Part shown: one piece after another, positions 13,458 to 57,739 of the stretch
Layout: each line of letters begins with the position of its first letter
Numbering within the stretch: position 1 is the stretch's first letter
Assembly (NCBI GenBank): GCA_947628485.1
Contig: CANRAA010000001.1
Coordinates: 1-57,918 of the forward strand
Reading direction: 5' to 3'
Source of the DNA: an uncultured Bacilli bacterium
GTDB lineage: Bacteria; Bacillota_I; Bacilli_A; RF39; UBA660
DNA: 57,918 nucleotides
The notes under the pieces: model-generated
The model's database searches: none
Seen by the model: the letters and a program-made list of their open reading frames with translations, nothing else
Told to the model about the DNA's origin: nothing
Position numbers and translations under genes: made by a program

Positions 13458-13464
13458 TTAATTA

Positions 13465-35891: not shown

Positions 35892-35931
35892 TTTAACCCT
35901 CTGCTTTCTTTTTTATAAATTTTTTAATCTA

Positions 35932-37545: not shown

Positions 37546-37602
37546 ATTATCACCATCTTTTCTTTATTATAAAATAAATTTAATCTATTAAACAATCAAT
37601 AT
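37546..37602 (-). promoter_or_regulatory. Reiterated intergenic cassette, copy 2
   Basis: Same core (TAATCTATTAAACAATCAATATTCACTTAAAAGACA on the plus strand) and the same TATAAT/GGTGA proximal part. Confidence 0.4.
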
Positions 37603-39303: not shown

Positions 39304-39360
39304 ATTTTCACCATCTTTCCTTTATTACAAATTATTTTAAATCTATTAAACAATCAATAT
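39304..39360 (-). promoter_or_regulatory. Reiterated intergenic cassette, copy 3
   Basis: Same core AAATCTATTAAACAATCAATATTTAG. The distal part runs into the 3' end of paralog 5. Confidence 0.4.
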
Positions 39361-41184
39361 TTAGTTAAAAGATAATCTTTTTGGTTTCGATATAAAATCT
39401 TCTCTAGTAAATATTGGATGATATTCTAAAAAATTATTTCCGGCCTCTTCTAAAGAAGGTAAATATACTTCTTCTAAAAATATGTTATTGTACAAAAAAT
39501 CATCACCAACTTTTTTTAAAACGGGTAAATTTAACTTTCTTAAGGATGTATTCTCTACTAAAAAAGCATCTGCAGTTTCCTCTAAAGATGGTAAAGATAA
39601 TTCTTTTAAGGAATTAACACTATATAAAAAGGCACTTCCAACCGATTTTAAAGATGGTAGATTTATTTCTTGAATTATTTCATTAGTGGATATAAAATCT
39701 TCACCTACTTTTCTTAAAAGGGGTAAATCTATTGTTTTAAGATTACCATTACTAAATAAAAAAGTATCTCCCGTTTCTTCTAAATAAGGTAGGGACAATT
39801 CTTCTAAAAAAATATTACTATTTAAAAAGTTATCTCCTACTTTTTTTAAAGATGGTAAAGATAAATTTTTAAGATATTGATTATAACACAGAAAAGCATT
39901 TCCCACTACTTCTAAGGATGGTAAACTTATTTCTTTTAATGAATTGTTATAAAATAAAAAGTCATTTTTAATTATTCTTAATTTAGGTAAATACAATTTT
40001 TTAAGATTTTTATTATCACATAAAAAATCATCACCAACATACTCCAAAGAAGGTAAGTTTAATTTTTCTAAAAAAATATTATTAAATAAAAAACATCTAC
40101 CTACTTTTTCTAGTAGTGGAAAACTTATTTCTTTTAAAAATTTATTATTGCATAAAAAATGACCATCAACTCTTTTAATATTACTTTCTAATTTAATCAT
40201 TTGATTATTCTTATTTAGGGATATTACGATTTTATTATCTTTTAAAGTTACAATTATTTCCTTTTCTTCTTGCTTTTTAACTACTTCTATTTTTTGAATG
40301 TTCGAAATAGTGCTCGAAAATGAATCTTCAATATATTCACAATATAATCTTATTTCTTTTTTAACTAAATCTAAAATAAAGTAATCAAAAACTATATATT
40401 TCTCTTTTTCATATCTTTTAACTTCAAAGTTATCAATAATTATATTATTGGGACAATAATAAACATTATATATTTCTTGATTATATTTATAAAATTTACC
40501 ATCATTTGCTATAACATAATTTTTTAATTCAAAATTATTTGTTTTAATTTTTTGAACTAAACCATAATGTTCGGCAAAAGAAGTTGTTAAACCTTCTACT
40601 ATATTATCTAAATTATTTGAAAAAGTACTATCCGGATTACTTACATGGTGATTATATCTATTCTTAATAGATAAAGTATGAGATGCATCCCTCGTAAATT
40701 GGATACTTAAAACACTTGTGCCATATTCATCTTGGCGATTAGGAAATAGGAAATCTTCTCTTTTGATGTCAGAAACATTCTTTTTTACCGCAAAGAAAAC
40801 ATGACATCTTTCTAGCCTTCCACCATTAAAAGTACAAAGTTCTTCCCCTTTAGCATAATACTTTTTAAACTTTTGAATGTCTTCCTCACTTGTACATTCA
40901 TATAAATCATAACCAGCCTTCTTAAGTAAATCTTTTGGAGAGGGAACTTCTGTTTCATGGTTATCATTTTCACGTTCAATTAAACTATAAATAAAATCTT
41001 TAAATTCATTTTCTTTATTTTGTCTTTTTATATCCTTATATAAATCATGATTTGGTTCAAAATGCTCTAACATTAAGTTTGAAAGTAAGCCTTCCGTTTC
41101 TAAGATAGTTGAAAAATATTCCCGGCAGAAATGGGCCATTTTCTCCCCATATTTTTTCTTAATTATTTTTAAATCTTGGTTCAT
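39361..41184 (-). CDS. NTD-LRR family protein, paralog 5 (607 aa)
   Basis: Same architecture. Its 5' part contains a 253-bp tract identical to paralog 8. Confidence 0.85.
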   Translation of the reverse strand: MNQDLKIIKKKYGEKMAHFCREYFSTILETEGLLSNLMLEHFEPNHDLYKDIKRQNKENEFKDFIYSLIERENDNHETEVPSPKDLLKKAGYDLYECTSEEDIQKFKKYYAKGEELCTFNGGRLERCHVFFAVKKNVSDIKREDFLFPNRQDEYGTSVLSIQFTRDASHTLSIKNRYNHHVSNPDSTFSNNLDNIVEGLTTSFAEHYGLVQKIKTNNFELKNYVIANDGKFYKYNQEIYNVYYCPNNIIIDNFEVKRYEKEKYIVFDYFILDLVKKEIRLYCEYIEDSFSSTISNIQKIEVVKKQEEKEIIVTLKDNKIVISLNKNNQMIKLESNIKRVDGHFLCNNKFLKEISFPLLEKVGRCFLFNNIFLEKLNLPSLEYVGDDFLCDNKNLKKLYLPKLRIIKNDFLFYNNSLKEISLPSLEVVGNAFLCYNQYLKNLSLPSLKKVGDNFLNSNIFLEELSLPYLEETGDTFLFSNGNLKTIDLPLLRKVGEDFISTNEIIQEINLPSLKSVGSAFLYSVNSLKELSLPSLEETADAFLVENTSLRKLNLPVLKKVGDDFLYNNIFLEEVYLPSLEEAGNNFLEYHPIFTREDFISKPKRLSFN

Positions 41185-41193
41185 ATTATCCCC

Positions 41194-42069
41194 CTACTTT
41201 CTTCTTTTCAAGGCCACTTCATTTAAATCATTAATCTTTTTTGTATACTCTGAATTACAAGACATAATCATCTTTTTATGCATTTCAATATTAGCATCAT
41301 CAATATATTTAGCATAAAGATAATTAGTTTCAACTTGGTCAATTGGTTTTGTTTCTTTACAAAAAACACTTAAATAATTTTCCACCATATTTTTTTCATC
41401 TTTAGTACAAAAAGAGCCTAGATAAAAGATAAAATAAGGGGCTAAAGTTCTTAAAACATAATTTATATTATCATTATGTAAATTTCTTTCATAAAATTCT
41501 AAAATATCTTTAACCATTGGACTTATATCTACATCACTAGAACAAGCCAAATTTTGTGCATATAAAGGCATTAAATATATAAGACCATAATTAGCCCAAT
41601 GATTATATGGAGTATTACCTAAAATATCATATATAAGAACTTTTTGAAAAGGATAATAATATACAAATTTTTCTTCGGGATTAAAAAGTTGTTCATTTCG
41701 AATTGGAACAGGAAATCCATTACATTTTAACCACTTATATTTTTCTTCTCCTTTTTCATAAGCCGTTAAAACTCTTTTCGTAAAACTACGAATAAATTCG
41801 AAAAATTCATTACCTAAAATAATTTGATGTTTTTTAGTATTTTCAAAACCATTCTCGGTAGGCATGGTATATCCCTTTAATATATAGGATAAAGTACTTG
41901 CTAAATACATGCCCATTATTTCTTGATTAGAATAATTAACTTCTGTAAAATTATAAATTCTTGCCCATGATGGCGGAATTCCTATCGGAAGTTTACACGG
42001 TTCTATTTCTTCATTTAATTCCTTATAACAATTATTTAAAAGCCACTTTTCACATTCTAATTTTGTCAT
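41194..42069 (-). CDS. Unrelated hypothetical protein inserted in the LRR array
   Basis: Trimmed to ATG 42069 (MTKLECEKW), 5 nt after an AGAGG SD. 291 aa, soluble, no LRR or NTD motifs. 9-nt gap to paralog 5. Confidence 0.65.
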   Translation of the reverse strand: MTKLECEKWLLNNCYKELNEEIEPCKLPIGIPPSWARIYNFTEVNYSNQEIMGMYLASTLSYILKGYTMPTENGFENTKKHQIILGNEFFEFIRSFTKRVLTAYEKGEEKYKWLKCNGFPVPIRNEQLFNPEEKFVYYYPFQKVLIYDILGNTPYNHWANYGLIYLMPLYAQNLACSSDVDISPMVKDILEFYERNLHNDNINYVLRTLAPYFIFYLGSFCTKDEKNMVENYLSVFCKETKPIDQVETNYLYAKYIDDANIEMHKKMIMSCNSEYTKKINDLNEVALKRRK

Positions 42070-42150
42070 ATTGACCTCTTTCTGGTTTCCTATCTTAACA
42101 CAAAATGACTTAATTAACAATTATTTAAGAGATAAATTTCCCATTTTAAT

Positions 42151-43638
42151 TCACTTTCTTTTATTATTTGGCATATTACCCTTCCTAAATTTTAAATAAT
42201 TTAGAAATTTTTTAAAACCATTCTTTTTAATTTGAAGTAAACAAGACTTACGAGCAGAAGGATTATCTAGAAAAAAACCATAACCTACTTTTTGCAGACT
42301 AGGAGTATTTATCTTCTTAATGGAATTATTATGATACATAAAGTCATCGCCAGCTTTTTCTAAAAGTGGTAAATTCATTTCTTCTAAAGCATCATTAAAA
42401 AAGAAAAAGTTATTTCCTACTTCTTGTAAAGAATTTAAGCTTAGTTCTTTAAATTTGCCATTTAAGCGAAAATTATTTCCTACTTTTTCTAAAGATGGCA
42501 AGTAAACTTCTTTTAAAACTTTATTATTATACAAAAAATAATCTTTAACAGTTTGTAAATTAGCCATCTTTAAAACCTCTAAATGTTTAACATAACATAA
42601 AAAATTATTTCCAACATCTTTTACATATGGATTATCTAACTCTATAATGTTATTAAATTTATTTAATACTATTGTTACTTTCCTATTATCTAGTAAAGTT
42701 ATTTTTATTTCTTTAGTATCATCTTCTTTTCTTTCTATTTCTATTTTTTCAATATTAGGAATAGTCGAAGGTAAAGAATCTTCAATATAAGAATTATAAA
42801 ATCTTATCTCTTTTTTAACTAAATCTAAAATAAAATAATCAAAGATAATAAATTTTTCTTTATCATATCTTTTAACCTTAAAATTATCAATTATTATATT
42901 ATTGGGACAATAATATACATTATAAAACTCATAATTATATTTATAGTATTTACCATCATTGGCTCTTACATAACCATCTAATTCAAATTTATTATTAAAG
43001 TATCTTTGCTCTATATCATAATATTTTCCAAAACTTTCTGTTAGACCCCAGATGATATTATCAAGGTTATTTCCAAAAGTACTATCGGGATTATTTACAG
43101 TATGATTATAACGATTTTTAATGGATAAGGTATGGGATTTATCCCTCGTAAATTGAATACTTATGACACTTGTGCCATATTCATCTTGCCTTTTTGGATT
43201 TAAGAAATTTTTTCTTTTAATTTGAGAGACATTTTTCTTAACGGCAAAGAAAACATAACATCTTTCAAGTCTTCCGCCATTAAAGGTACAAAGTTTTTCT
43301 CCGGGGGCATAATACTTTATAAACTTTTGAATGTCTTCTTCACTCTTACACTCATATAAATCATAACCAGCCTCGCTTAATAATTCTTCGGGAGTTTTTA
43401 TGATTTTTGTTTCTTTTTTGTCTTCGACATCTACTAAACTAAAAATATAATTTTTAAATTCAACTTCTTTATCTTGATTTATTATATCTTCATATAAATC
43501 ATGATTTGGTTCAAAATGCTCGAGCATTAGATTTAAAAGTAAACCTTCTGTTTCTAGTAAAGTAGAAAAATAATCACGACAAAAATGGGCCATCTTCTCC
43601 CCATATTTTTTCTTAATTATTTTTAAATCTTGGTTCAT
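42151..43638 (-). CDS. NTD-LRR family protein, paralog 6 (495 aa, short 6-repeat form)
   Basis: Near-duplicate of paralog 13, including a 203-bp exact tract. Basic C-terminal tail KKFLNYLKFRKGNMPNNKRK. Confidence 0.85.
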   Translation of the reverse strand: MNQDLKIIKKKYGEKMAHFCRDYFSTLLETEGLLLNLMLEHFEPNHDLYEDIINQDKEVEFKNYIFSLVDVEDKKETKIIKTPEELLSEAGYDLYECKSEEDIQKFIKYYAPGEKLCTFNGGRLERCYVFFAVKKNVSQIKRKNFLNPKRQDEYGTSVISIQFTRDKSHTLSIKNRYNHTVNNPDSTFGNNLDNIIWGLTESFGKYYDIEQRYFNNKFELDGYVRANDGKYYKYNYEFYNVYYCPNNIIIDNFKVKRYDKEKFIIFDYFILDLVKKEIRFYNSYIEDSLPSTIPNIEKIEIERKEDDTKEIKITLLDNRKVTIVLNKFNNIIELDNPYVKDVGNNFLCYVKHLEVLKMANLQTVKDYFLYNNKVLKEVYLPSLEKVGNNFRLNGKFKELSLNSLQEVGNNFFFFNDALEEMNLPLLEKAGDDFMYHNNSIKKINTPSLQKVGYGFFLDNPSARKSCLLQIKKNGFKKFLNYLKFRKGNMPNNKRK

Positions 43639-43720
43639 TTAATCACCATCTTTACTTTATTATAAATTATTTTAAATCTATTAAACAATCAATATTTACT
43701 TAAAAGACATTTATTGACAG
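43639..43720 (-). promoter_or_regulatory. Reiterated intergenic cassette, copy 4
   Basis: Minus strand reads CTGTCAATAAATGTCTTTTAAGTAAATATTGATTGTTTAATAGATTTAAAATAATTTATAATAAAGTAAAGATGGTGATTAA-ATG, which contains TTGTTT, an 18 bp spacer and TATAAT. Confidence 0.4.
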
Positions 43721-45667
43721 TTACCTTTTAGTTTTTGGAATAAAATCTTCTTTAAAGGTATGATGACTATTTAAAAAATTATCACCAATTATTACTAAAG
43801 AGGGTAAATTTGCCTCTAGAAGAACTCTATTGTTAGGTAAGAAATCATTCCCCACTTTTTGTAATGATGGTAAGTCTAGTATTTTAAGAAAGTCATTGTG
43901 AAACAAAAAATCATTGCCTACTTCTTTTAAGGATGGTAACCTTAATTCTTTTAAAGCACGATTATCAAATAGAAAATAATCAGCCACACTTTCTAATAAC
44001 GGCAAATTTACCTCTTGAATTATTTCATTGCAATTCAAAAATTCATGTCCGACTTTTTTTAAATGTGGTAAATCCAATTTTTTAAGATTTTGATTATGAT
44101 ATAAAAATTTATTTCCCGCTTCCTCTAAAGAAGGTAGGTCTAACTCTACTAATGAATTATTATCTCCAAGAAAATAGTGACCGACTACTTTTAGAGAAGG
44201 TAAAGATATTTTTTCTAAACCTACTACCGAAACTAAAAAGTTTCTTCCCGCCTTTTGTAATTTTGGAAGTTTAATTTCTTGTAAAGTAATATTATCATGA
44301 AAAAAATTATCATCAACTTCCAAAAGTTCTGGTAAAAATAGTTTCTCTAAAGACCAATTTCTATATAAAAAATTATGACCAACTTTTCTTAAGACCGGTA
44401 AATTTAATTTATGAATTTGACTGTTATAATAAAGAAAGTTAATCCCAACTTCTTCTAAAGATGGCAAGTCTATTTCTTTTAATTCTGAGTTACAACCAAA
44501 AAATTCTGATCCTACCCTTTTCAACTTAGGTAAATTTAATTTTTTTAGACTATTATAAGTTAAAAAACAATCGCCAACATTCTCTATATTTGGGGTATTT
44601 AATTCTTGTAAAGATGACGCAAAAGTTAAAAAATCATCTTCAACCTCTTTTAAATTTAAATTTTCTAATTTTAGGATTCTATTATTTTTATCTAAAACTA
44701 TTATTACTTCATTTTTATTTTGTAAAATAAATTTTATTTCTTTAGTATCGTCTTCTTTTCTTTTTATTTCGATCTTTTCGATATTAGGAATAGTCGAAGG
44801 AAAAGAATCTCTCATATTTGGTCCATATAATCTTACCTCTTTTTTTACTAAATCTAAAATAAAGTATTCAAAAATAATATATTTTTCTTTATCATATCTT
44901 TTAACTTCAAAGTGATCAATGATTATATTATTGGGGCAATAATAAACATTATATAGTTCTTGATTATATTTATAATATTTACCATCACTCGCATTGACAT
45001 AACCTCTTAATTCAAAACCATTTGTTTTGTGTTGTTGCTCTAAACCATAATGTTTGGCAAAAGATTCTGTTAAGCCATCAACAATATTATCAAGATTATT
45101 TGAATAAGTACTGTCAGGATTATTAACATGGTGATTATAGCGATTTTTGATAGATAAGGTATGGGATGCATCTTTGGTAAATTGAATACTTAGAACACTC
45201 GTCCCGTACGTATCTTGTCTTTGGGGATTAGGATAGTCTTCTCTTTTGATTTCTGAAACATTTTTCTTTACAGCAAAGAAAACATGACATCTACCTAACC
45301 TACCTCCATTAAAAGTACATAACTCTTCCCCTTTAGCATAATACTTTTTAAATCTTTGAATATCTTCCTCACACTTACATTCATATAAATCATAACCTAC
45401 TTCGCTTAACAATTCTTTTGGGCTTTTTATGCTTTTTGTTTCCTTATTCTTTTCAACACCTACTAAACCATAAATATAATTTTTAAAATTAATCTCTTCC
45501 TTTTGCTCTATTATATCTTCATATAAATCATGATTAGGCTCAAAATGCTCGAGCATTAATTTTAAAAGTAAACCTTCCGTTTCTAATAAGGTGGGAAAAT
45601 AATCACGACAAAGATGGGCCATTTTCTCCCCATATTTCTTTTTAATTATTTTTAAATCTTGGTTCAT
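43721..45667 (-). CDS. NTD-LRR family protein, paralog 7 (648 aa)
   Basis: Same N-terminal motifs and a long LRR tail. Confidence 0.85.
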   Translation of the reverse strand: MNQDLKIIKKKYGEKMAHLCRDYFPTLLETEGLLLKLMLEHFEPNHDLYEDIIEQKEEINFKNYIYGLVGVEKNKETKSIKSPKELLSEVGYDLYECKCEEDIQRFKKYYAKGEELCTFNGGRLGRCHVFFAVKKNVSEIKREDYPNPQRQDTYGTSVLSIQFTKDASHTLSIKNRYNHHVNNPDSTYSNNLDNIVDGLTESFAKHYGLEQQHKTNGFELRGYVNASDGKYYKYNQELYNVYYCPNNIIIDHFEVKRYDKEKYIIFEYFILDLVKKEVRLYGPNMRDSFPSTIPNIEKIEIKRKEDDTKEIKFILQNKNEVIIVLDKNNRILKLENLNLKEVEDDFLTFASSLQELNTPNIENVGDCFLTYNSLKKLNLPKLKRVGSEFFGCNSELKEIDLPSLEEVGINFLYYNSQIHKLNLPVLRKVGHNFLYRNWSLEKLFLPELLEVDDNFFHDNITLQEIKLPKLQKAGRNFLVSVVGLEKISLPSLKVVGHYFLGDNNSLVELDLPSLEEAGNKFLYHNQNLKKLDLPHLKKVGHEFLNCNEIIQEVNLPLLESVADYFLFDNRALKELRLPSLKEVGNDFLFHNDFLKILDLPSLQKVGNDFLPNNRVLLEANLPSLVIIGDNFLNSHHTFKEDFIPKTKR

Positions 45668-45749
45668 TTTATCACCATCTTTATTCTATTATAAAATATT
45701 TTAAATCTATTAAACAATCAATACTTATTTAAAAGACAAATATTGACAA
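45668..45749 (-). promoter_or_regulatory. Reiterated intergenic cassette, copy 5
   Basis: Same core AAATCTATTAAACAATCAATACTTATTTAAAAGACAAATATTGACA on the plus strand. Confidence 0.4.
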
Positions 45750-48161
45750 TTATCTTTTAAATTTTGTTGTGAATTCTTCTCTGGCAAATATAGGATGACT
45801 TTTTAAAAAATTATATTCAGCCATTTCTAATAAAGGTAAATCCAATTCTTCTAAAATTTCATTACTACTTAAAAAATTATCACCTACTTTTTGAAGTTTA
45901 GGTAAAGACAATTTTCTAATCTTACGATTATTAAATAAAAATTTATCGCCAACTTCTTCTAAAGAAGGTAAATTTAATTCTTCTAAATCTAAATTACAAA
46001 ACAAAAATCCTGTATAGGTTTTTTGCAAATTAGGCAAATTTAATTTACAAAGTTTATTATTGCTATATAGAAAATTACTTCCTGCTACTTCTAAAGAAGG
46101 TAAATTTATTTCAGCAATAATCTTATTATTACGTAAAAAATCCTTTCCAACTTTTTGTAATTTAGGTAAGTTTAATTTTTGTAAAAATTTATTATTAACT
46201 AAACAGTAAAGTCCCAGTTCTTTTAAATTAGGTAATTCTAATTCTTGTAAAGATACATTAAGATGTAAAAAATAATCTCCAATTTTTTCAACTTCAGGTA
46301 AATACAACCTTTTAAGGGCTTTATAACTAGGTAAAAAATATGATCCCGCTATTTTTAAAGAAGGTAAACTTAATGCCTCTACAGAATTATAACTATGGAA
46401 AAAGTGATCACCAACGACTGTTAAAAATGGCAAATTTACCCTTTTTAAGGAAGTAGCATTATATAAGAAATCATTACCAACTACTTCTAAGGATGGTAAA
46501 TCTATTTTTTGAATTATTTTATTTTGAACCAAAAAATCATGTCCCGCTTTTTTTAAACGTGGTAAGTTTATTTCTTTTAGATTATTATTATTAAATAAAA
46601 ATTGTGATCCGACCTCTTCTAAAGAAGGTAGGTCTAATTTTTCTAAAATTTCATTATCCGTTAGAAAAAAGTCGCCCGCTATTTTTAGAGAAGGTAAAGA
46701 TATTTCTTTTAAAGTTATTGTTATCAAGGACAAAAAATTTCTCCCCACTTTTTGTAATTTAGGCAAATTTACTTCTTTTAAAGAAGAATTAATAGGTAGA
46801 AAACAACTACCAACTTCCAAAAGCTCTGGTAAAGTCAATTCTTCTAAATCTTTATTTTTATTTAAGAAATCATTACCAACTTTTCTTAAAACCGGTAAAT
46901 TTAATTTATGAATTATTCTATTAGAAATTAAAAACCAATCTCCCACTTCTTCTAAAGAAGGTAAGTCTAATTCTTTTAAAAATAAATTATAACTTAAAAA
47001 TCCCGTTCCAACTTTTTTTAAATGGGGTAAATCCAATTTTTTTAGACAATTATGCGCTAAAACACGATCGCCGACTTCTTCTAAATTAGGCATATTTAAT
47101 TCTTTTAAATGATTAGCAAAAAATAAAAATTCATCCCCAATTTCTTTTATATTTAAATCTTCTAGTTTTATCATTTTATTATCTTTATCTAATTCTATTA
47201 TTACTTCCTTATTATTTTGGAAAATAAGTTTTATTTCTTTAGTTTTTTCTTTTCTTTTTATTTCGATCTTTTCGATATTCGAAAAAATAACAGGAAAAGT
47301 ATCTTTTATATTAGGTTTATACACACTTATCTTTTTATTAACTAAATCTAAAATAAAGTATTCAAAGACAATATATTTTTCTTTGTCATATCTTTTAACC
47401 TCAAAGTTATCAATGATTATATTATTGGTACAATAATATATGTTAAAATGTTCTTGATTATATTTATAAAATTTACCATCATTCGCTCTAACATAATCAT
47501 CTAATTCAAAGTCATTACATACATGGTTTTGAACAAGTTTATAATGTTCGGCGAAACTTTCCGTTAAACCAGGAATTATATTGTCTAAATTATTTGAGTA
47601 GGTACTATCGGGATTACGAACAGTATGATTATATCTATTTTTGATGGATAAAGTGTGGGATTTATCCCTCGTAAATTGAATACTTAAAACACTCGTCCCA
47701 TAAGCATCTTGTCTTTCAGGGAAAATAAAATCTTCTCTTTTGATGTCAGAAACATTCTTTTTTACCGCAAAGAAAACATGACATCTTTCTAGTCTTCCTC
47801 CATCAAATGTACAAAGTTTCTCCCTTTCGGCATAATACTTTTTAAATTTTTGAATGTCTTCCTCACACTTACATTCATATAAATCATAACCAGCCTTCTT
47901 AAGTAAATCTTTTGGAGAGGGAACTTCTGTTTCATGGTTATCATTTTCACGTTCAATTAAACTATAAATAAAATCTTTAAATTCATTTTCTTTATTTTGT
48001 CTTTTTATATCCTTATATAAATCATGATTTGGTTCAAAATGCTCTAACATTAAGTTTGAAAGTAAGCCTTCCGTTTCTAAGATAGTTGAAAAATATTCCC
48101 GGCAGAAATGGGCCATTTTCTCGCCATATTTTTTCTTAATTATTTTTAAATCTTCGTTCAT
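45750..48161 (-). CDS. NTD-LRR family protein, paralog 8 (803 aa, longest)
   Basis: Same N-terminal motifs. I counted 21 consecutive LRR units by hand. Confidence 0.85.
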   Translation of the reverse strand: MNEDLKIIKKKYGEKMAHFCREYFSTILETEGLLSNLMLEHFEPNHDLYKDIKRQNKENEFKDFIYSLIERENDNHETEVPSPKDLLKKAGYDLYECKCEEDIQKFKKYYAEREKLCTFDGGRLERCHVFFAVKKNVSDIKREDFIFPERQDAYGTSVLSIQFTRDKSHTLSIKNRYNHTVRNPDSTYSNNLDNIIPGLTESFAEHYKLVQNHVCNDFELDDYVRANDGKFYKYNQEHFNIYYCTNNIIIDNFEVKRYDKEKYIVFEYFILDLVNKKISVYKPNIKDTFPVIFSNIEKIEIKRKEKTKEIKLIFQNNKEVIIELDKDNKMIKLEDLNIKEIGDEFLFFANHLKELNMPNLEEVGDRVLAHNCLKKLDLPHLKKVGTGFLSYNLFLKELDLPSLEEVGDWFLISNRIIHKLNLPVLRKVGNDFLNKNKDLEELTLPELLEVGSCFLPINSSLKEVNLPKLQKVGRNFLSLITITLKEISLPSLKIAGDFFLTDNEILEKLDLPSLEEVGSQFLFNNNNLKEINLPRLKKAGHDFLVQNKIIQKIDLPSLEVVGNDFLYNATSLKRVNLPFLTVVGDHFFHSYNSVEALSLPSLKIAGSYFLPSYKALKRLYLPEVEKIGDYFLHLNVSLQELELPNLKELGLYCLVNNKFLQKLNLPKLQKVGKDFLRNNKIIAEINLPSLEVAGSNFLYSNNKLCKLNLPNLQKTYTGFLFCNLDLEELNLPSLEEVGDKFLFNNRKIRKLSLPKLQKVGDNFLSSNEILEELDLPLLEMAEYNFLKSHPIFAREEFTTKFKR
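45753..47165 (-). repeat. 21 tandem 22-aa (66-bp) BspA/TpLRR-like leucine-rich repeats (example)
   Basis: Units fit L-x-L-P-x-L-x-x-[VA]-G-x-x-F-L-x-x-N-x-x-L-x-x, for example LDLPSLEEVGDWFLISNRIIHK and LNLPVLRKVGNDFLNKNKDLEE. Confidence 0.85.
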
Positions 48162-48207
48162 AATATCACCATATTCCTTTATTATAAATCATTTTTAATC
48201 CTATAAC

Positions 48208-49875: not shown

Positions 49876-51620
49876 TTGCTCACCTTCTTTTTTGTTTTCT
49901 TTAATGTACTACTAATCACGGGATGATCTTCTAAAAATGGAAAGATAAGTTCAGGGACAATTATTTCTCTTAAATCTTCATTAAAATATAAAAATTTATT
50001 ACCTACCATTTGTAAACATGGTAAATTTATTTTATAAATTTTTTTATTAAAACATAAGAAATATTCCCCAGCACTTTTTAAAGAAGGTAAACTTAATTCT
50101 TGAAGACCTTCGTTATAATATAAAAAATAATTGCCCACTTCCTCTAAAGAAGGTAAAACTAGTTCTCGAAGACACTCATTTCCATACATAAAATCATTTC
50201 CCACTTTTTTTAAGAATGGTAAATCTAATTTTTTAAGAACTTCATTATAATATAAAAACTTATTACCAACTTCTTCTAGGAGTGGTAAATCTAATTCTTT
50301 TATGACTGCGTTTAATAGTAAGAAACTATTCCCAACTTTTCTTAATGATGGTAAACTTATTTCTTTTAAAACTTCGTTATATTGTAAGAAATTACTACCT
50401 ACTCTTTGCAAACTTGGTAAATTTAACTCTTTTATATAAACATTAAAACATAAAAAGCTATTACCAACTCTTTTTAATTTAGGAAGATTTAATTTTTTTA
50501 AATGGCTATTAAACTCACAAAAACCATCTCCTACTTTTTCTAAAACTGGTAAATTTAATTCATGAATTAAAAAATTAGAAGAAAGGAAATAATCCCCAAT
50601 TATTTTTATTTTAGGATAATCTAATTTAATAATTTGATTATTTTTATTTAATGCCATAGTTATGATATTATTGTTTTGTAAAGTTATTTTTATTTCTTTT
50701 TCCTCTTCTTTTCTTTCTATTTCTATTTTAACAATATTGAAAAAAATATCGGGAAAAGATTCTCTAATACTTTTATCATATAATCTTACCTCTTTATTTA
50801 CGAGATCTAAAATAAAGTAATCAAAAATAATATATTTTTCTTTATCATATCTTTTAACCTTAAAATTATCAATTATTATATTATTGGGACAATAATAAAT
50901 GTTATTTAACTCTTGATTATATTTATAAAATTTACCATCACTGGCTAAAACATAATAATCTATAGAAAATTCATTTCTTAAATGTTGTTGCACAAGACCA
51001 TAATACTTACCAAAACTTTCGGTTAAACCAGGAATTATATTATCTAGGTTATTCGAATAAGTACTATCGGGATTATTAACAGTATGATTATAGCGGTTTT
51101 TAATCGATAATATATGGGATTTATCCCTTGTAAATTGAATACTTATGACACTAGTTCCGTAGGCATCTTGTCTTTCGGGATTAGAAAAATCTTCTCTTTT
51201 AATGTTAGCAACATTTTTAGAAACGGCAAAGAAAACATGACAACTTTCCAGTCTATTTCCTCTAAAAGTACATAATTCTTCCCTTTTGGCATAATATTTT
51301 TTAAATTTTTGAATATCTTCCTCACACTTACATTCATATAAGTCATAACCGGCCTCGTTTAATAATTCTTCGGGGGTTTTTATTTCTTTTACCTCATTAT
51401 TTTTTTCGACATCAACAAAACTATAAATATAATTTTTAAAATCACCTTCTAGATTTTGCTCTATTATGTCATCATATAAATCATGATTTGGTTCAAAATG
51501 TTTTAACATAAGATCGGAAAGTAAACCTTCTGTTTCTAGTAAAGTAGGAAAAAATTCCCGACATAAATGAGCCATCTTTTCCCCATATTTCTTTTTAATT
51601 ATTTTTAAATCTTCATTCAT
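49872..51620 (-). CDS. NTD-LRR family protein, paralog 10 (582 aa)
   Basis: Trimmed to ATG 51620 (MNEDLKII, as in the paralogs) after an AGGTGA SD. The track start is 51638. Confidence 0.85.
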   Translation of the reverse strand: MNEDLKIIKKKYGEKMAHLCREFFPTLLETEGLLSDLMLKHFEPNHDLYDDIIEQNLEGDFKNYIYSFVDVEKNNEVKEIKTPEELLNEAGYDLYECKCEEDIQKFKKYYAKREELCTFRGNRLESCHVFFAVSKNVANIKREDFSNPERQDAYGTSVISIQFTRDKSHILSIKNRYNHTVNNPDSTYSNNLDNIIPGLTESFGKYYGLVQQHLRNEFSIDYYVLASDGKFYKYNQELNNIYYCPNNIIIDNFKVKRYDKEKYIIFDYFILDLVNKEVRLYDKSIRESFPDIFFNIVKIEIERKEEEKEIKITLQNNNIITMALNKNNQIIKLDYPKIKIIGDYFLSSNFLIHELNLPVLEKVGDGFCEFNSHLKKLNLPKLKRVGNSFLCFNVYIKELNLPSLQRVGSNFLQYNEVLKEISLPSLRKVGNSFLLLNAVIKELDLPLLEEVGNKFLYYNEVLKKLDLPFLKKVGNDFMYGNECLRELVLPSLEEVGNYFLYYNEGLQELSLPSLKSAGEYFLCFNKKIYKINLPCLQMVGNKFLYFNEDLREIIVPELIFPFLEDHPVISSTLKKTKKKVSK

Positions 51621-51664
51621 TTTTTCACCTGCTTTCATTGTTATAAATTAATTTAATATATTTA

Positions 51665-53611
51665 TTATCTTCTAATTGTATGGCCAAAATTTTCCCTAGT
51701 TAATTCAGGATATTTTGCTAAAAAGTGATTACCTATTATTTCTATTGAAGGTAAATACACTTCTTTTAAAACTTTATTACGAGGCATAAAATATTCCCCA
51801 GCTTTTATAAGCTTTGGTAAATATAATTTTTCAATAGAATTATTGTGAAATAAAAAGCAATCACCAACTTCTTCTAAAGAAGGCAAATATATCTCTTTTA
51901 AACATAAAGCATTGTCCAAAAAATAATTTCCTATGGTTACTAATGATGGCAAATTTACTTCTTGAATTATTTTATTATAAGCCAAAAAACTATCTCTTGC
52001 TTTTTTCAAAAGGGGTAAATCTAATTTTTTAAGTCTATTATTATTAAATAAAAATTTAGGCCCTACTTCTTCTAAAAGGGGTAAGTCTAATTCTTCTAAA
52101 GAAGTATCACCATCTAAGAAATTACCCCAAACTTCCCTTAAAGACGGTAAACTTAATTTTTTTAAAGATGTTCCCCTATACAAAAAGTATCGGCCTACTC
52201 TTTGTAACTTAGGCAACCTTATTTCTTTTAAAGCATTATTAGTATATAAAAAATCATCTTGGGCTTCTAAAAGTTCTGGTAAAAGTAATTCTTCTAATGC
52301 CGTATTATAATATAAGAAACAATTACCTACTTTTTGGAGTTTAGGTAAATTTAATTTATGAATTGTTTGATTAAAATAAAGAAAATCATCACTAACTTCT
52401 TCTAAAGAAGGTAAATCTAATTCTTCTAAAGAAAAATTGTCATGCAAAAATCCCCATCCTACTCTTTGCAATTTAGGTAAATATATTTTTTTAATATTAT
52501 TATCCATTAAAAAACATTTCCCAACCTTTTCAAGATTTGGCACATTAAATTCTTCTAAAGAAGGCACAAAACTCAAAAAATAATCTTGGGCTTCTTTTAA
52601 ATTTTGATTTTCGAATTTTATTATTTGATTATCTTTATTTAAAATAATTATTACTTCACTATTATCTTGTAATGTAATTTTAATTTCTTTATTCTCTTCT
52701 TTTCTTTTTACTTCTATTTTATGAATATTTGTTAAAGTACTAGGAAAAGAATCTTCCATTTCATTATCATATACTCTTATCTTTTTATTAACTAAATCTA
52801 AAATAAAGTATTCAAAAACAATATATTTTTCTTTATCATATCTTTTAACTTCAAAATCATCAATTATTATATTATTGGGACAATAATAAATATTAAAATT
52901 TTCTTGATTATATTTATAAAATTTGCCATCATTTGCTTGAACATAGCCCTTTAATTCAAAATTTTTACTTATATTATCTTGCGAAAGATTATAATACTTA
53001 CTAAAACTTTCAGTTAATCCTTCTATAATATTATCTAGATTATTCGAAAAAGTACAATCAGGATTGCTTACATGATGATTATATCTATTTTTAATAGATA
53101 AAGTATGGGATTTATCCCTCGTAAATTGAATACTTATAACACTTGTTCCATATTCATCTTGTCTTTGGGGATTAGAAAAGTTTTTTCTTTTAATTTCCGA
53201 AACATTCTTTTTAACGGCAAAGAAGACATAACATCTATTTAGTCTTCCCCCGTGGAAAGTACATAACTCTTCCCCTTTGGCATAATACTTTTTAAACTTC
53301 TGAATATCTTTTTCACTTGTACATTCATATAAATCATAACCAGCTTCACTTAATAAATATTCAGGAGTTTTAAATGGTATTTCTTTGTTATCTTTTTCAA
53401 CATCTACTAAACTATAAATATAATTTTTAAATTCAGTTTCTTTGTTTTGCTCTATTATATCTTCATATAAATCATGACTTGGTTCAAAATTATCTAATAA
53501 TAATTTTAAAAGTAGACCATCTGTTTCTAAAATGGTTGGAAAATTATCCCTGCAAAAATGCGCCATTTTCTCGCCATATTTCTTTTTTATTATTTTTAAT
53601 TCTTCATTCAT
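51665..53611 (-). CDS. NTD-LRR family protein, paralog 11 (about 648 aa)
   Basis: The junction GGTGATGAATATG gives three possible starts: GTG 53620, ATG 53617 or ATG 53611. ATG 53611 matches the paralog N-termini. Confidence 0.85.
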   Translation of the reverse strand: MNEELKIIKKKYGEKMAHFCRDNFPTILETDGLLLKLLLDNFEPSHDLYEDIIEQNKETEFKNYIYSLVDVEKDNKEIPFKTPEYLLSEAGYDLYECTSEKDIQKFKKYYAKGEELCTFHGGRLNRCYVFFAVKKNVSEIKRKNFSNPQRQDEYGTSVISIQFTRDKSHTLSIKNRYNHHVSNPDCTFSNNLDNIIEGLTESFSKYYNLSQDNISKNFELKGYVQANDGKFYKYNQENFNIYYCPNNIIIDDFEVKRYDKEKYIVFEYFILDLVNKKIRVYDNEMEDSFPSTLTNIHKIEVKRKEENKEIKITLQDNSEVIIILNKDNQIIKFENQNLKEAQDYFLSFVPSLEEFNVPNLEKVGKCFLMDNNIKKIYLPKLQRVGWGFLHDNFSLEELDLPSLEEVSDDFLYFNQTIHKLNLPKLQKVGNCFLYYNTALEELLLPELLEAQDDFLYTNNALKEIRLPKLQRVGRYFLYRGTSLKKLSLPSLREVWGNFLDGDTSLEELDLPLLEEVGPKFLFNNNRLKKLDLPLLKKARDSFLAYNKIIQEVNLPSLVTIGNYFLDNALCLKEIYLPSLEEVGDCFLFHNNSIEKLYLPKLIKAGEYFMPRNKVLKEVYLPSIEIIGNHFLAKYPELTRENFGHTIRR

Positions 53612-53616
53612 ATTCA

Positions 53617-55566
53617 TCACCTGCTTTTTCTATTTAAATTATCTTTTAACTCTAATGATAATTGCTCACAATCAAAAATTAAATCTTCCGTATTACAATA
53701 TTCTTTTAAAAGTGGCGTATAACAATAAGGAATGTCTTTCAAAAGGGAAATATCAGAAACTCTTTCTAACTTGGGAGCATATAAATATTTTATTACTTTA
53801 AAATCTTTAAAATTAATTATAGAAATAAGATTAGGTAGGTATAATATTTTTACTTTATCATTATTATATAGAAAAGAGTCTTGTATAGAAACCAAAGATG
53901 GTAAATTTATAATTTCTAATTCTCTATTTTTATACATAAAATTTTTTCCTGTTTTTTCTAACATAGGCATGTCTAATTTTTTACATGCTATATCAAAATA
54001 TAAAAAATCGTGTTTAACTTCACAACATTTGGGTAAATATACATCTTCTATAATCATATTTTCAGGAAGAAAATTATTACCAATATGAGTTACATTAGGT
54101 AAATATATTGTTTTTATTTTATCGTTATCATATAAAAAGTCATCCCCAATAGAAACTAAAGAAGGAAGATTTATAGTTTCTAATTTTCCATTTTCTGTCA
54201 TAAAATTAGCTCCTACTTTTTCTAACCTAGGCATATCTATTTTTTTACAGACAAAATTATAATACAAAAAATTGTCTTTAATTTCTCGACATTTTGGCAA
54301 AGAGACAGACTCTATTTTTTCGTTTGCCCATAGAAAGTTGCTTCCAATAAAAGTTACATTTGGCAAAGAAATGGATTTTAATTTGTTATTAAAATATAAA
54401 AAATCATTACCGATAGTTTCACATTTTGGCAAGAATATTTCTTCCAAACTATCATTATTATCTGACATAAAATCATAACTTATTCTTTCAACATTAGAAA
54501 GATATATTCTTTGACATTTTCTATTATAAAACAAATAATTTTCTTTTATTCCTCTAATATAGGGATTATTAACCATAATAATATTGTTATCTTTATCCAA
54601 ATTAATTGTTATTATAAATCCATCTTCATTATATATTAATAATTCCTTATAATCTTTTCTATTGGTTATTGTAATTTTTTTAATTTTACCTAAACTATGA
54701 ATAAAACCATCATTCTCACGAATATGTTTTTTAATTTTTTTGGTTTCTAAATTTAAAATAAAATAATCAAAGATAAGATACTTTTCTTTATCATATCTTT
54801 TAACTTCAGAATTATCAATTATAATATTATTGGGGCAATAATAAACATTATCTATTTCAAGATTATATTTATAGTATTTACCATCACTCGCTCTAACATA
54901 ATCCCTTAATTCAAATTTACCATTAGAATGTTGTTGGATAAGACCATAATATTCGGAAAAAGATTCTGTTAAGCCATCAATAATATTGTCTAAATTATTT
55001 GAGTAAGTACTATCGGGATTATTAACGGTATGGTTATAACGATTTTTTATAGATAAGGTATGGGATTTATCTTTAGTAAATTGAATACTTAGAACACTTG
55101 TGCCATATGTATCTTGCCTTTGGGGATTAGGAAAGTTTTTTCTTTTAATGTCTGAAGCATTTTTCTTAACCGCAAAGAAAACATAACATCTATTAAGCCT
55201 TCCCCCATTAAAAGTACATAATTCTTCACCACTAGCATAATATTTTTTAAACTTTTGAATATCTTCCTCACACTTACATTCATATAAATTATAACCTACT
55301 TCACTTAATAGTTCTTCGGGAGTTTTAATTACTTTTATTTTATTATCTTTTTCCACATCTACTAAACTATAAATATAATTTTTAAATTCAGTTTCTTTGT
55401 TTTGCTCTATTATATCTTCATATAAATCATGACTTGGTTCAAAATTATCTAATAATAATTTTAAAAGTAGGCCATCTGTTTCTAAAATGGTTGGAAAATT
55501 ATCCCGACAAAAATGAGCCATTTTCTCCCCATATTTCTTTTTCATTATTTTTAATTCCTCATTCAT
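53617..55566 (-). CDS. NTD-LRR family protein, paralog 12 (about 649 aa, divergent linker and LRR type)
   Basis: The first 79 aa differ from paralog 11 at only one position. The linker and repeats differ (LPNVTxIG / LPKCxE / MPxLEK / LPSLVSI units). Confidence 0.85.
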   Translation of the reverse strand: MNEELKIMKKKYGEKMAHFCRDNFPTILETDGLLLKLLLDNFEPSHDLYEDIIEQNKETEFKNYIYSLVDVEKDNKIKVIKTPEELLSEVGYNLYECKCEEDIQKFKKYYASGEELCTFNGGRLNRCYVFFAVKKNASDIKRKNFPNPQRQDTYGTSVLSIQFTKDKSHTLSIKNRYNHTVNNPDSTYSNNLDNIIDGLTESFSEYYGLIQQHSNGKFELRDYVRASDGKYYKYNLEIDNVYYCPNNIIIDNSEVKRYDKEKYLIFDYFILNLETKKIKKHIRENDGFIHSLGKIKKITITNRKDYKELLIYNEDGFIITINLDKDNNIIMVNNPYIRGIKENYLFYNRKCQRIYLSNVERISYDFMSDNNDSLEEIFLPKCETIGNDFLYFNNKLKSISLPNVTFIGSNFLWANEKIESVSLPKCREIKDNFLYYNFVCKKIDMPRLEKVGANFMTENGKLETINLPSLVSIGDDFLYDNDKIKTIYLPNVTHIGNNFLPENMIIEDVYLPKCCEVKHDFLYFDIACKKLDMPMLEKTGKNFMYKNRELEIINLPSLVSIQDSFLYNNDKVKILYLPNLISIINFKDFKVIKYLYAPKLERVSDISLLKDIPYCYTPLLKEYCNTEDLIFDCEQLSLELKDNLNRKSR

Positions 55567-55571
55567 ATTCA

Positions 55572-57059
55572 TCACCTACTTTTTTTATTTTGCTTGTTTC
55601 CATTCCTAAATTTTAAATAATTAAGAAATTTTTTTAAGTCATTTTTTTTGATTTGAAGTAAACAAGACTTACGAGCATAAGAATTATCTAGGAAAAAACT
55701 ATGACCTACTTTTTGCAGATTAGGAGTACTTATCTTCTTAATGGAATTATTACAATACATAAAATCATCGCCAACTTTTTCTAAAAGCGGCAGGTTTATT
55801 TCTTCTAAACTAGCATTAAAAAGAGTAAAACAATCTCCTACTTCTTGCAAAGAATTTAGACTTAATTCTTTAAATTGACCAATTAAGCAAAAATAATTTC
55901 CAACTTTTTCTAAAGATGGCAAGTAAACTTCTTTTAAAACTTTATTATTATATAAGAAAAAATTTTTAACAGTTTGTAAATTGGCCATCTTTAAAACCTC
56001 TAAATGTTTAACATAACATAAAAAATTATTTCCAACATCTTTTACATATGGATTATCTAACTCTATAATGTTATTAAATTTATTTAATACTATTGTTACT
56101 TTCCTATTATCTAGTAAAGTTATTTTTATTTCTTTAGTATCATCTTCTTTTCTTTCTATTTCTATTTTTTCAATATTAGGAATAGTAGAAGGGAAAGAAT
56201 CTTCAGTATAAGAATTATAAAATCTTATTTCTTTTTTAACTAAATCTAAAATAAAATAATCAAAGATAATATATTTTTCTTTATCATATCTTTTAACCTT
56301 AAAATTATCAATAATTATATTATTGGGACAATAATAAATATTATAAAACTCATAATTGTACTTATAGTATTTTCCATCATTAGCTCTTACATACCCACCT
56401 AATTCAAATTTATTGTTAAGGTGTTTTTGGACTAAACCATAATATTTTCCGAAACTTTCCGTTAAACCCCTGATGATATTATCGAGGTTATTTCCGAAAG
56501 TGCTATCAGGATTATTAACAATATGATTATAGCGATTTTTGATGGATAAGGTATGGGATTTATCCCTCGTAAATTGAATGCTTATGACACTGGTTCCATA
56601 TTCATCTTGTCTTTTAGGTTTAGGAAAATCTTCTCTTTTGATATCAGAAACATCCTTTTTAACAGCGAAGAATACATAACATCTATTAAGTCTTCCTCCA
56701 TGAAAAGTACATAACTCTTCCCCTTTGGCATAATACTTTTTAAACTTTTGAATATCTTCCTCACACTTACATTCATATAAATCATAACCAGCCTCGCTTA
56801 ATAATTCTTCGGGAGTTTTTATGATTTTTGTTTCTTTTTTGTCTTCGACATCTACTAAACTAAAAATATAATTTTTAAAATCGTTTTCTTTTTCTTGCTT
56901 TATTATATCATCATATAAATCATGATTTGGTTCAAAATGCTTTAACATAAGATTGGAAAGTAAACCTTCTGTTTCTAGTAAAGTAGGAAAAAATTCCCGA
57001 CATAAACGAGCCATCTTTTCCCCATATTTTTTCTTAATTATTTTTAATTCTTCGTTCAT
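55572..57059 (-). CDS. NTD-LRR family protein, paralog 13 (495 aa, short form)
   Basis: First LRR gene after Cys-His paralog C, with a 23-nt gap and AAGGTGGGGG SD. Near-duplicate of paralog 6. Confidence 0.85.
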   Translation of the reverse strand: MNEELKIIKKKYGEKMARLCREFFPTLLETEGLLSNLMLKHFEPNHDLYDDIIKQEKENDFKNYIFSLVDVEDKKETKIIKTPEELLSEAGYDLYECKCEEDIQKFKKYYAKGEELCTFHGGRLNRCYVFFAVKKDVSDIKREDFPKPKRQDEYGTSVISIQFTRDKSHTLSIKNRYNHIVNNPDSTFGNNLDNIIRGLTESFGKYYGLVQKHLNNKFELGGYVRANDGKYYKYNYEFYNIYYCPNNIIIDNFKVKRYDKEKYIIFDYFILDLVKKEIRFYNSYTEDSFPSTIPNIEKIEIERKEDDTKEIKITLLDNRKVTIVLNKFNNIIELDNPYVKDVGNNFLCYVKHLEVLKMANLQTVKNFFLYNNKVLKEVYLPSLEKVGNYFCLIGQFKELSLNSLQEVGDCFTLFNASLEEINLPLLEKVGDDFMYCNNSIKKISTPNLQKVGHSFFLDNSYARKSCLLQIKKNDLKKFLNYLKFRNGNKQNKKSR

Positions 57060-57082: not shown

Positions 57083-57739
57083 TTATCTAAAACTCGGTTT
57101 TACTATTTCTAAAGTTTTAATTAAATCTAAATTAACTCTATTTTGATAATATCTTTTAAAATCGTTAATGTCTTCACTAAAATGAAGTTCATTACTAGTA
57201 CCCATTTTACTAGACCAACTACCATCTAAATTTTGTCTTACAAAATGATAATTAGCAAGGCCACCGGTTATTTTCGCATCATAATAAATGCCAATTTTAT
57301 AACCCCTGTGAGAGGGATTATCTAAAACATCGGTTTCGTAATATTTAAATTTTAAATATTCTAAATCACTATATAAACATTCAAGGAATTCTTTTTCGCT
57401 TGTAATGCCATACTTTATGTTCTTGCGATACCCACTAATCATACCTACATTTTGAATGGTTAAAAAATTTTTTAAATGCGGATTTTTCATTAAGTGTTCT
57501 TCTAAAAAATAAGGCATTGGTAAATCAAGAGCACAAGTATAACAATTAGAACTTGTAGAGTAATAAGCATTATTATTTTTAGGAATTTTTGGTTGAAGTC
57601 TTACTGCTAACTTTAAGTATTCTCGATATAATTCTTGCATTTTTAAAAGGGAAGATTTACTATCATTATTAATCTTCAAAATTTCATTTTTTAAAAATAA
57701 TAATTTAGTTTTTAAATCAATCAATTCCCCTAAAATCAT
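57083..57739 (-). CDS. Predicted Cys-His (papain/transglutaminase-like fold) protein, paralog C, first gene of the block
   Basis: ELYREYLKLAVRLQPKIP, NCYTCALDL, GYKIGIYY, NYHFVRQNLDGSWSSKMG, TLEIVKP. AGAGG SD. Confidence 0.5.
   Translation of the reverse strand: MILGELIDLKTKLLFLKNEILKINNDSKSSLLKMQELYREYLKLAVRLQPKIPKNNNAYYSTSSNCYTCALDLPMPYFLEEHLMKNPHLKNFLTIQNVGMISGYRKNIKYGITSEKEFLECLYSDLEYLKFKYYETDVLDNPSHRGYKIGIYYDAKITGGLANYHFVRQNLDGSWSSKMGTSNELHFSEDINDFKRYYQNRVNLDLIKTLEIVKPSFR

Follow-up and report, generated by a model that had tools for sequence, protein, structure and literature searches.

Identical tracts shared by tandem paralogs of a head-plus-LRR gene array in an uncultured gut bacterium of the Bacilli: probable ectopic gene conversion

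Three pairs of exactly identical DNA tracts, embedded in members of a tandem gene array of an uncultured gut bacterium, most probably arose by ectopic (inter-paralog) gene conversion. This explanation, proposed in the initial annotation of the DNA, is supported by blocks of raised identity that are bounded on both sides, by a permutation test, by incongruent trees for different segments of the genes, and by two pairs of paralogs (p11/p12 and p10/p13) that are locally closer to each other than to their orthologues in another species. The DNA analysed, called here the window, is a stretch of 57,918 nucleotides from a Bacilli MAG (1.3 Mb, 26 % GC, animal gut). It contains the following genes.

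32186..57059, minus strand: tandem array of 13 paralogs, p1 to p13 in window order, defined from ORFs, LRR_5 matches and alignment
41194-42120: unrelated gene that breaks the array
57083..57739, minus strand: DUF7689-like gene at the head of the array, found at the same place in a related species (89 % aa)

The array is about 25 kb long and all its paralogs are co-oriented; the genome carries 14 copies of the family in total, the 14th being on another contig. Each paralog consists of a conserved N-terminal domain of about 345 aa (the head) followed by a BspA-type LRR tail. Each of the 13 copies has its own start codon and forms a complete ORF, with lengths of 495-803 aa; several of these ORFs overlap or are tightly spaced, and the copies are apparently co-transcribed. 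The DNA identity of N-terminal domains between paralogs has a background of 73-84 %, and reaches 91 % for p6/p13. The recA, mutS and mutL genes were found in the genome.

The three perfect matches described initially proved to be exact and maximal, as not one base can be added on either side of any of them. They are listed here with two other exact matches and with one segment of p13 that resembles p10.

40893..41145, minus strand: tract 1 (253 bp), p5 copy, gene nt 40-292, identical to 47870-48122
47870..48122, minus strand: tract 1, p8 copy, exact match to the p5 copy
42563..42765, minus strand: tract 2 (203 bp), p6 copy, gene nt 874-1076, identical to 55984-56186
55984..56186, minus strand: tract 2, p13 copy, exact match to the p6 copy
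53400..53515, minus strand: tract 3 (116 bp), p11 copy, nt 106-221 of the listed ORFs, identical to 55355-55470
55355..55470, minus strand: tract 3, p12 copy, exact match to the p11 copy
43352..43458, minus strand: additional exact p6/p13 tract (107 bp), gene nt 181-287, p13 copy at 56773-56879
40751..40815, minus strand: exact p5/p8 match (65 bp), p5 gene nt 370-434, p8 copy at 47728-47792
56925..57020, minus strand: p13 gene nt 40-135, p10-like, 97 % identical to p10 (51486-51581) and 85 % to its near-duplicate p6

Further exact tracts link p6/p10 (64 bp), p8/p9 (61 bp), p2/p7 (55 bp) and p10/p13 (52 bp). The gene structures were also as first described: p5 and p8 share an N-terminal segment and have LRR tails of unequal length (p5, 607 aa with about 12 repeat units; p8, 803 aa with about 21), and p11 and p12 share an N-terminus followed by different modules, the linker/LRR type of p12 being distinct.

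A GENECONV-style test (556 polymorphic sites, 2000 column permutations), of the kind the initial annotation had proposed as a check, gave runs of agreeing polymorphic sites of 140, 110 and 66 for tracts 1, 2 and 3, respectively, compared with a global maximum of 57 in the permuted data (95th percentile 38). In tract 1, all third-codon positions are identical (84/84), compared with a mean of 67 % in the other pairs; therefore, constraint at the protein level cannot explain the identity. Sliding identity between p5 and p8 is 97-100 % at first, then about 80-90 %, then about 62-68 %. Since the DNA upstream of p5 is unrelated to that upstream of p8, the p5/p8 block (nt ~1-434, closed by the 65-bp match) has two breakpoints. 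Raised identity is likewise bounded on both sides in p11/p12 (nt -23 to +221), where tract 3 is the exact core of a block of about 244 nt with 10 differing positions. The p6 and p13 genes are about 90 % identical from end to end, with values ranging from 78 % to 100 % in 60-nt windows.

Trees of different segments were incongruent. In the 5' 290 nt, AU tests rejected the p8+p11 grouping (p = 1e-5) and the p7+p12 grouping (p = 3e-5), both of which were recovered downstream with moderate support (80/83 and 91/92, respectively). In the 3' segment, a p5+p8 grouping was not rejected (AU p = 0.2), so that the case for p5/p8 rests on the jump in divergence and on the permutation test.

The array was compared with that of a same-genus species, G020, whose paralogs are labelled q. 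In the tree of nt 435-1000, p11 groups with q4 (100/98), p12 with q3 (100/100), p10 with q1, and the p6-p13 pair with q8, p6 and p13 being together sister to this single orthologue (100/99); for this segment a p11+p12 grouping was rejected by the AU test (delta lnL 212, p = 0.002). In the tree of nt 1-225, p11 and p12 are sisters (96/96), and the AU test rejects p12+q3 (p = 0.0008). The 5' ends of p11 and p12 are 96 % identical, and the two genes are each other's closest relatives in the first ~220 nt despite having separate orthologues, which is a classic signature of gene conversion. The direction of this exchange gave borderline AU values for both groupings ({p11,p12,q3}, p = 0.054; {p11,p12,q4}, p = 0.065). 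The 5' part of p13 behaves similarly: over nt 40-135 it is 97 % identical to p10 and 93 % to q1, compared with 85 % to p6 and 77 % to q8. In both p11/p12 and p10/p13, paralogs are thus closer to each other than to the G020 orthologues inside the tracts, and not outside them. This comparison does not apply to p5/p8, because blastn against 42 genomes of the genus detected no orthologue of the block above 82 % identity. Exact searches with a 35-mer of tract 1 gave no match in JGI metagenome contigs or in GTDB genome contigs. Long tracts are not a general trait of these arrays, as exact tracts in that of G020 do not exceed 83 bp.

All tract data come from short-read metagenome assemblies, in which no single read spans a tract. 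We considered that a de Bruijn-graph assembler might have masked differences between paralogs, or threaded repeats wrongly, and thereby made or lengthened the tracts and the mosaics. In five further short-read contigs, which come from four samples (four other ENA assemblies), the genes stand in the same order and the three tract pairs recur with zero differences. These assemblies represent essentially one strain: over the 6-19 kb compared, 0-1 substitutions and one or two small indels separate them, apart from a single 77-nt patch, located between the 253-bp tract 1 and the 65-bp match.

40816..40892, minus strand: 77-nt patch of p5, state 'a', gene nt 293-369, 13 differences from the p8 patch
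47793..47869, minus strand: 77-nt patch of p8, state 'b' (state 'a' in ERZ27249555)

Three combinations of patch states (p5,p8) were observed: (a,b) in the window, (a,a) in ERZ27249555 and (b,b) in ERZ27249546; the p5 patch was 'a' in ERZ27249059 and 'b' in ERZ27249050. This disagreement means that the array is probably mis-assembled somewhere, and it bears out the earlier warning that the array is prone to assembly collapse, since the independent assemblies disagree precisely where a patch is flanked by exact repeats. At k = 55 the patch is the only simple bulge of the array (one pair of genes, two exact runs of at least 55 nt within 300 nt), which makes assembler collapse the likelier cause of the disagreement. 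In addition, two contigs (L007 and L008) run into shared exact tracts and break off there after exactly 55 nt. Bulges of this kind are collapsed by metaSPAdes by design (PMC5411777), and such masking could have partly inflated the exactness of the tracts.

As a full explanation, an assembly artefact is nevertheless unlikely. Because collapse depends on exact flanks, at least k bases long, that are already present, it can lengthen a stretch of identity but cannot produce similarity between genes that are 80 % identical. The three tracts are invariant between assemblies although the patch varies, and the 10 differences in the p11/p12 block are reproduced in all of them. The building of the contigs itself requires all four flank-to-tract junctions to be present in reads. 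Logan k=31 contigs of two studies also cover the region, and those of run X1, from an independent study (2022, 94 % of sampled words), showed a single variant place in 17.7 kb; such contigs break at every shared 31-mer and give neither tract phasing nor clean copy-number depth. We infer that the exactness of the tracts was not inflated by the assembler. The patch carries a warning for work with MAGs: the sole clustered difference in 19 kb between near-identical samples lies at a graph bulge between exact repeats, and would be misread as variation between strains or as conversion still in progress.

If the patch states were real alleles, the array might be a diversity-generating locus, in which intact, co-expressed paralogs convert fast enough to differ between animals that carry the same clone; we regard this as quite improbable. 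A programmed high-frequency variation, resembling antigenic or phase variation, in which cassettes are exchanged so often that clones in different animals differ in patch state, is very unlikely. Samples with otherwise near-identical DNA yielded (a,b), (a,a) and (b,b) patches, which would fit it, as would two runs (X7 and X8) that contained half of the array words and none of the six sampled words specific to the p5 patch, although six clustered words at low depth are a weak test. However, flips are confined to the very place where assembler collapse is expected from the k = 55 bulge, and 13 complete ORFs, several of them overlapping or tightly spaced, do not resemble an expression site with silent cassettes. 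Most paralogs have stable orthologues across species, and the proteins lack a signal peptide, which makes immune-type selection on a surface antigen unlikely.

There is equally little chance that the tracts are merely the undiverged remains of young duplicates, formed without exchange between established paralogs: this would suit the p6-p13 pair, sister to the single q8 and similar along its whole length, and the p5+p8 clade that the 3' segment does not reject, but p11 and p12, whose orthologues are separate, are 96 % identical at their 5' ends, p5 and p8 pass within one gene from 0 % to 20-35 % divergence, the diverged stretch having no donor elsewhere in the array, p6/p13 identity is uneven and the 5' end of p13 is p10-like, and a uniform scatter of differences is rejected by the permutation test.

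Ectopic gene conversion would involve short, non-reciprocal homologous recombination of the RecA type among the co-oriented tandem paralogs, a few hundred bases being copied from one paralog into another. At least three exchanges would have taken place after the split from the same-genus species. One would link p11 and p12 over about nt -23 to 221. A second would have carried about nt 40-135 of p10 into p13; it is the only event whose direction we could propose. The third, between p5 and p8 over about nt 1-434, may have left a pair of tracts or a single patchy one, given that 77 nt of own sequence survive as an island in the middle of the block. This block starts in the near-invariant first 39 nt of the genes, where strand invasion could be seeded. 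The p6-p13 pair may be either a post-speciation duplication or the product of a whole-gene conversion, in both cases later patched by other paralogs, which would leave 100 % stretches (203 and 107 bp) beside stretches of 78-80 %. Such exchanges would homogenise only parts of the conserved head domain.

The initial annotation had also read the tracts as domain shuffling that reassorts constant and variable modules. This was not borne out: all breakpoints found lie inside the constant head or in the near-duplicate genes, and none at the head/LRR junction. Nor is the mosaic structure of p12 a recent reassortment, as its unusual combination of head and LRR is old and common to its orthologue q3, with 96 % identity in nt 701-1000. 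As for the concerted evolution invoked at the same time, local homogenisation does occur, but the term overstates the case: because most paralogs retain their own orthologues, divergence is the main mode of evolution of the array, and homogenisation is local only.

Gene conversion within a tandem family is textbook biology. The babA/babB and sabA/sabB genes of Helicobacter and the duplicate tuf genes are bacterial examples of its ectopic form. It also occurs in a bacterial multigene family, between PE_PGRS pairs of M. tuberculosis (PMC1762029, PMC12046097). Our array resembles these cases in having short non-reciprocal tracts between diverged paralogs of one genome, recognised by identity runs with two boundaries and by conflicting segment trees, and in being hard to analyse with short reads. 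It differs from PE_PGRS in that it concerns a signal-less head-plus-LRR protein of an uncultured gut Bacilli, encoded in one co-oriented 25-kb array and seen in MAG assemblies only. In mammals, gene conversion is reported to limit the divergence of TLR1 and TLR6 (PMC2077338); these are also tandem LRR-containing paralogs in which conversion homogenises part of the gene, although, unlike the array proteins, they are eukaryotic receptors.

Segmental gene conversion within a clustered family is shared with cassette-type antigenic variation, as in Neisseria pilE/pilS, Borrelia vlsE, Treponema tprK and Mycoplasma MgPa. Unlike those systems, the array does not consist of one expression locus served by silent, truncated donors; its copies are intact and their orthologues are stable across species.

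Multigene families of BspA-like (LRR_5) proteins include BspA of Tannerella and the BspA-like expansions of Trichomonas. Our family is similar to these in its many paralogs, its variable repeat number and its LRR_5 tails, which score above the cut-off (PF13306; p5, 55.5 bits; p8, 120.4 bits; p12, 47.8 bits; gathering cut-off 27.7). In contrast with characterised BspA adhesins, the array proteins have, by inspection, no signal peptide or anchor: all the paralogs start with MN(Q/E/N)(D/E)LKI(I/M)KKKYGEKMA(H/R), which is charged and contains no hydrophobic segment. The family also differs from the BspA-like ones in being defined by its head of about 345 aa, for which no known family or fold was matched. 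Profile searches of Pfam, NCBIfam and PDB gave no match to the head. Its AlphaFold model is confident (pLDDT 88.5); Foldseek of this model against PDB gave no match at E <= 0.001, and the best hit of a wide VIA-align search (Z = 5.7) was confined to a 46-residue beta-meander. A PcfJ-like head (PF14284) was suggested by an Atlas feature search, which returned PcfJ clusters at 0.89 and was treated as a lead only; this lead was not confirmed, as hmmscan (43 family members, E <= 1) did not report PF14284. A search of AFDB clusters with the head returned the family itself and nothing else.

The conversion process is already known and it is the protein family that has no name. It is a very large one, which forms about 1,180 clusters at the 50 % identity level, and the array gives a view of how such a signal-less head-plus-LRR family evolves in uncultured gut Bacilli, with old paralogs and short conversions that re-homogenise parts of the head.

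The array contains 13 paralogous genes, numbered p1 to p13 in coordinate order, with a 14th paralog on contig C38 of the same genome:

32186-57059, minus strand: 13 paralogous genes, p1 to p13, ORFs of 495-803 aa
41194-42120: unrelated 308-aa gene breaking up the array, within the run of 13 paralogs

The window is contig C1 in its entirety (57,918 bp). According to sequencing-run look-ups, the source genome (1.30 Mb, 98 contigs, 89.6% complete, 26% GC) occurs in gut metagenomes of rabbits and other animals. Each paralog protein has a two-part architecture, a conserved N-terminal domain of about 345 aa (the head domain), which has no Pfam or NCBIfam match, and a leucine-rich repeat (LRR) tail matching Pfam LRR_5 (BspA type) above cut-off.

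Three pairs of exact tracts had been reported in the initial annotation: 40893-41145 and 47870-48122 (253 bp, p5/p8), 42563-42765 and 55984-56186 (203 bp, p6/p13), and 53400-53515 and 55355-55470 (116 bp, p11/p12). All are identical base for base, and extension by a single base on either side breaks each match; there are also shorter exact tracts, among them one of 107 bp shared by p6/p13 and one of 65 bp shared by p5/p8. The background DNA identity of the N-terminal domain is 73-84% among paralogs, and 91% for p6/p13. The breakpoint check proposed at that stage (GENECONV) was carried out as a GENECONV-like test on 556 polymorphic columns of a gap-free 1011-nt alignment, with 2000 column permutations. 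Runs of consecutive agreeing polymorphic sites reached 140 for p5/p8, 110 for p6/p13 and 66 for p11/p12, compared with a permuted maximum of 57 for any pair. Third-codon positions of the 253-bp tract are all identical (84/84; mean of other pairs 67%). The tract observation is real and significant.

In their first ~290 nt p5 and p8 share 97-100% identity, then 80-90%, and finally 62-68%; the sequences that precede their ribosome-binding sites are unrelated, and the shared block therefore has two breakpoints. This block (nt 1-434) contains 15 differences, 13 of them inside a 77-nt island (nt 293-369; 40816-40892 in p5, 47793-47869 in p8), whose p5 version has no match among the other paralogs (the closest has 10 mismatches). 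The p11/p12 block spans 244 nt (-23 to +221), with 10 differing positions and the 116-bp exact tract at its core; beyond the block the two are 53-60% identical, since p12 carries its own linker and LRR type, in agreement with the earlier description of a common N-terminus followed by unlike modules. The pair p6/p13, described as near-duplicates, does share 90% identity along all 1485 nt, though unevenly (78% to 100% in 60-nt windows), and nt 61-120 of p13 match p10 (97% identity) rather than p6. The p6/p13 similarity ends at the gene ends, and six genes separate the two.

Three segments of the head domain give conflicting trees. The 5' 290 nt reject p8+p11 (AU p = 1e-5) and p7+p12 (AU p = 3e-5), groupings that have moderate support in downstream segments. 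Paralogs that are closer than orthologues in a sub-segment only are the standard proof of gene conversion. We compared the array with that of a related species of the genus (G020), in which 13-16 paralogs, designated q, lie on a single 40-kb contig. With nt 435-1000, orthologue pairs were clear: p11-q4 (100/98), p12-q3 (100/100), p10-q1, p7-q7, p1-q11 and (p6,p13)-q8, and a p11+p12 clade was rejected (delta lnL 212, p = 0.002). With nt 1-225, p11 and p12 were sisters (96/96) and p12+q3 was rejected (p = 0.0008); these paralogs are thus closer than orthologues in nt 1-225 only. In the same segment p13 grouped with p10+q1, and its nt 40-135 are 97% identical to p10, 93% to q1, 85% to p6 and 77% to q8. 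A p10 to p13 direction of transfer can be inferred, since p10 and q1 are congruent in both segments. As p5/p8 had no match above 82% in 42 genomes of the genus, the paralog-versus-orthologue evidence comes from p11/p12 and p10/p13.

The permutation test, the incongruent segment trees and the paralogs closer than orthologues in sub-segments uphold gene conversion between paralogs; ectopic gene conversion of the ordinary kind, in a tandem family, is the best explanation. Co-oriented paralogs would exchange sequence through homologous recombination of the RecA type, with resolution that involves no crossover; the genome has recA, mutS and mutL. The p5/p8 block begins in the near-invariant first 39 nt (mean major-allele frequency 0.92 vs 0.84 overall), and many exact blocks of 40-65 nt between paralogs could seed strand invasion. 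The p5/p8 island might result from two separate events or from one heteroduplex repaired patchily, and p6/p13 arose either by duplication after speciation or by conversion of the whole gene.

Two broader proposals were not supported. Recent reassortment of modules by domain shuffling is not borne out, because all breakpoints found lie in the constant head or in near-duplicates, none at the head/LRR junction, and the unusual tail of p12 is common to its orthologue q3. Genome-wide concerted evolution is not borne out either, because within-genome identities are similar to between-genome ones and orthologues persist.

Exact-protein look-ups identified SPAdes-style contigs in four other ENA assemblies, collinear with 35421-57831 and essentially identical to it, among which all three tract pairs are present. 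Logan contigs (k=31) of two studies also include the region; in a 2022-study run (X1) they contain 94% of sampled words, with one variant place in 17.7 kb. Clustered differences between assemblies (loci L001, L004, L006 and L017) occur only at the 77-nt patch formed by the island.

State of the 77-nt patch in each assembly (a, p5-type; b, p8-type)
Window: p5 a; p8 b
ERZ27249059: p5 a; p8 not covered
ERZ27249555: p5 a; p8 a
ERZ27249546: p5 b; p8 b
ERZ27249050: p5 b; p8 not covered

Exact repeats flank the patch, one of 253 nt and one of 65 nt, and this is the sole place in the array with two exact runs of at least 55 nt within 300 nt in one pair. Two contigs stop exactly 55 nt into shared tracts, which points to an assembler word size of k = 55. 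A simple bulge is a short divergent path that joins two repeat vertices. Masking simple bulges is what metaSPAdes was built to do (PMC5411777). The patch flips are probably due to assembler collapse, since the patch is a k = 55 bulge of this kind between exact repeats; real bidirectional conversion is a distinctly less probable source. A k-mer look-up with the 6 sampled words of the p5 version detected none of them in runs X7 and X8, which contain half of the array's words; so few words make this suggestive at most. The predicted proneness of the array to collapse is thus seen in independent short-read assemblies from one strain that give (a,b), (a,a) and (b,b), a disagreement that would be mistaken for strain variation. 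That collapse created the three tracts themselves is unlikely: it can only bridge between exact repeats already there, assemblies show no variation inside the tracts despite varied outcomes at the patch, and the 10 distinguishing bases of the p11/p12 block are kept in every assembly. Gene conversion here is a known kind of process, and the assembly-collapse hazard is demonstrated at one spot.

The head-domain family is very large and unnamed (>3,400 matches in a 90% database; 1,180 clusters at 50% identity), the head domain is always N-terminal, and the sole label on database relatives is 'MAG: leucine-rich repeat protein [Bacilli bacterium]'. An AlphaFold model of the head domain (p5 residues 1-345, 40150-41184) is confident (pLDDT 88.5, pTM 0.70) and predicts one alpha/beta half and one beta-rich half. 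Foldseek against PDB returned no match at E <= 0.001, VIA-align against 48,161 chains gave a best Z of 5.7 over 46 residues, and AFDB clusters returned only the family itself. A PcfJ lead was not confirmed when 43 family members were searched with hmmscan. The residues that stay invariant across the paralogs include C97, E114, C117, R123, R142, R150, Y154, S157, S160, Q162 and an R176-Y-N motif, with H179 near-invariant, and may form a candidate active site. None of the paralogs starts with a hydrophobic N-terminal segment; judging from sequence, this lack of export signals favours a role inside the cell. The p8 LRR tail (45750-47130) has about 21 repeat units, and three consecutive segments each align to a single ~170-aa stretch in the tail of p5, a sign of probable higher-order internal duplication.

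Comparable arrays exist in two other species of the genus, G020 (contig C14, L015/L016; ~13-16 copies) and G054 (contig C87; ~10), and in most of the 42 genomes searched the copy number is 0-5. The order of the genes is only partly kept: the q3-q4 adjacency corresponds to p12-p11, but q1 lies elsewhere. The 308-aa gene matches nothing in Pfam or NCBIfam. Contig C45 of the source genome (4726-5595) carries a paralog of it with 68% identity, and a tblastn search of the G020 array contig detected no homologue. Weak DUF7689-like genes flank the array, at its head (57083-57739) and beyond its tail (29463-30131 and 28828-29460). The head copy is kept at 89% aa identity in G020 (C14, about 13446-14099), where it likewise sits immediately upstream of the first paralog. 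Near its 3' end is a 17-nt indel (57104-57120) that is no tandem repeat of its neighbours; in ERZ27249546 the product has 211 aa, as against 218 aa in the window and in both ERZ27249050 and ERZ27249059.
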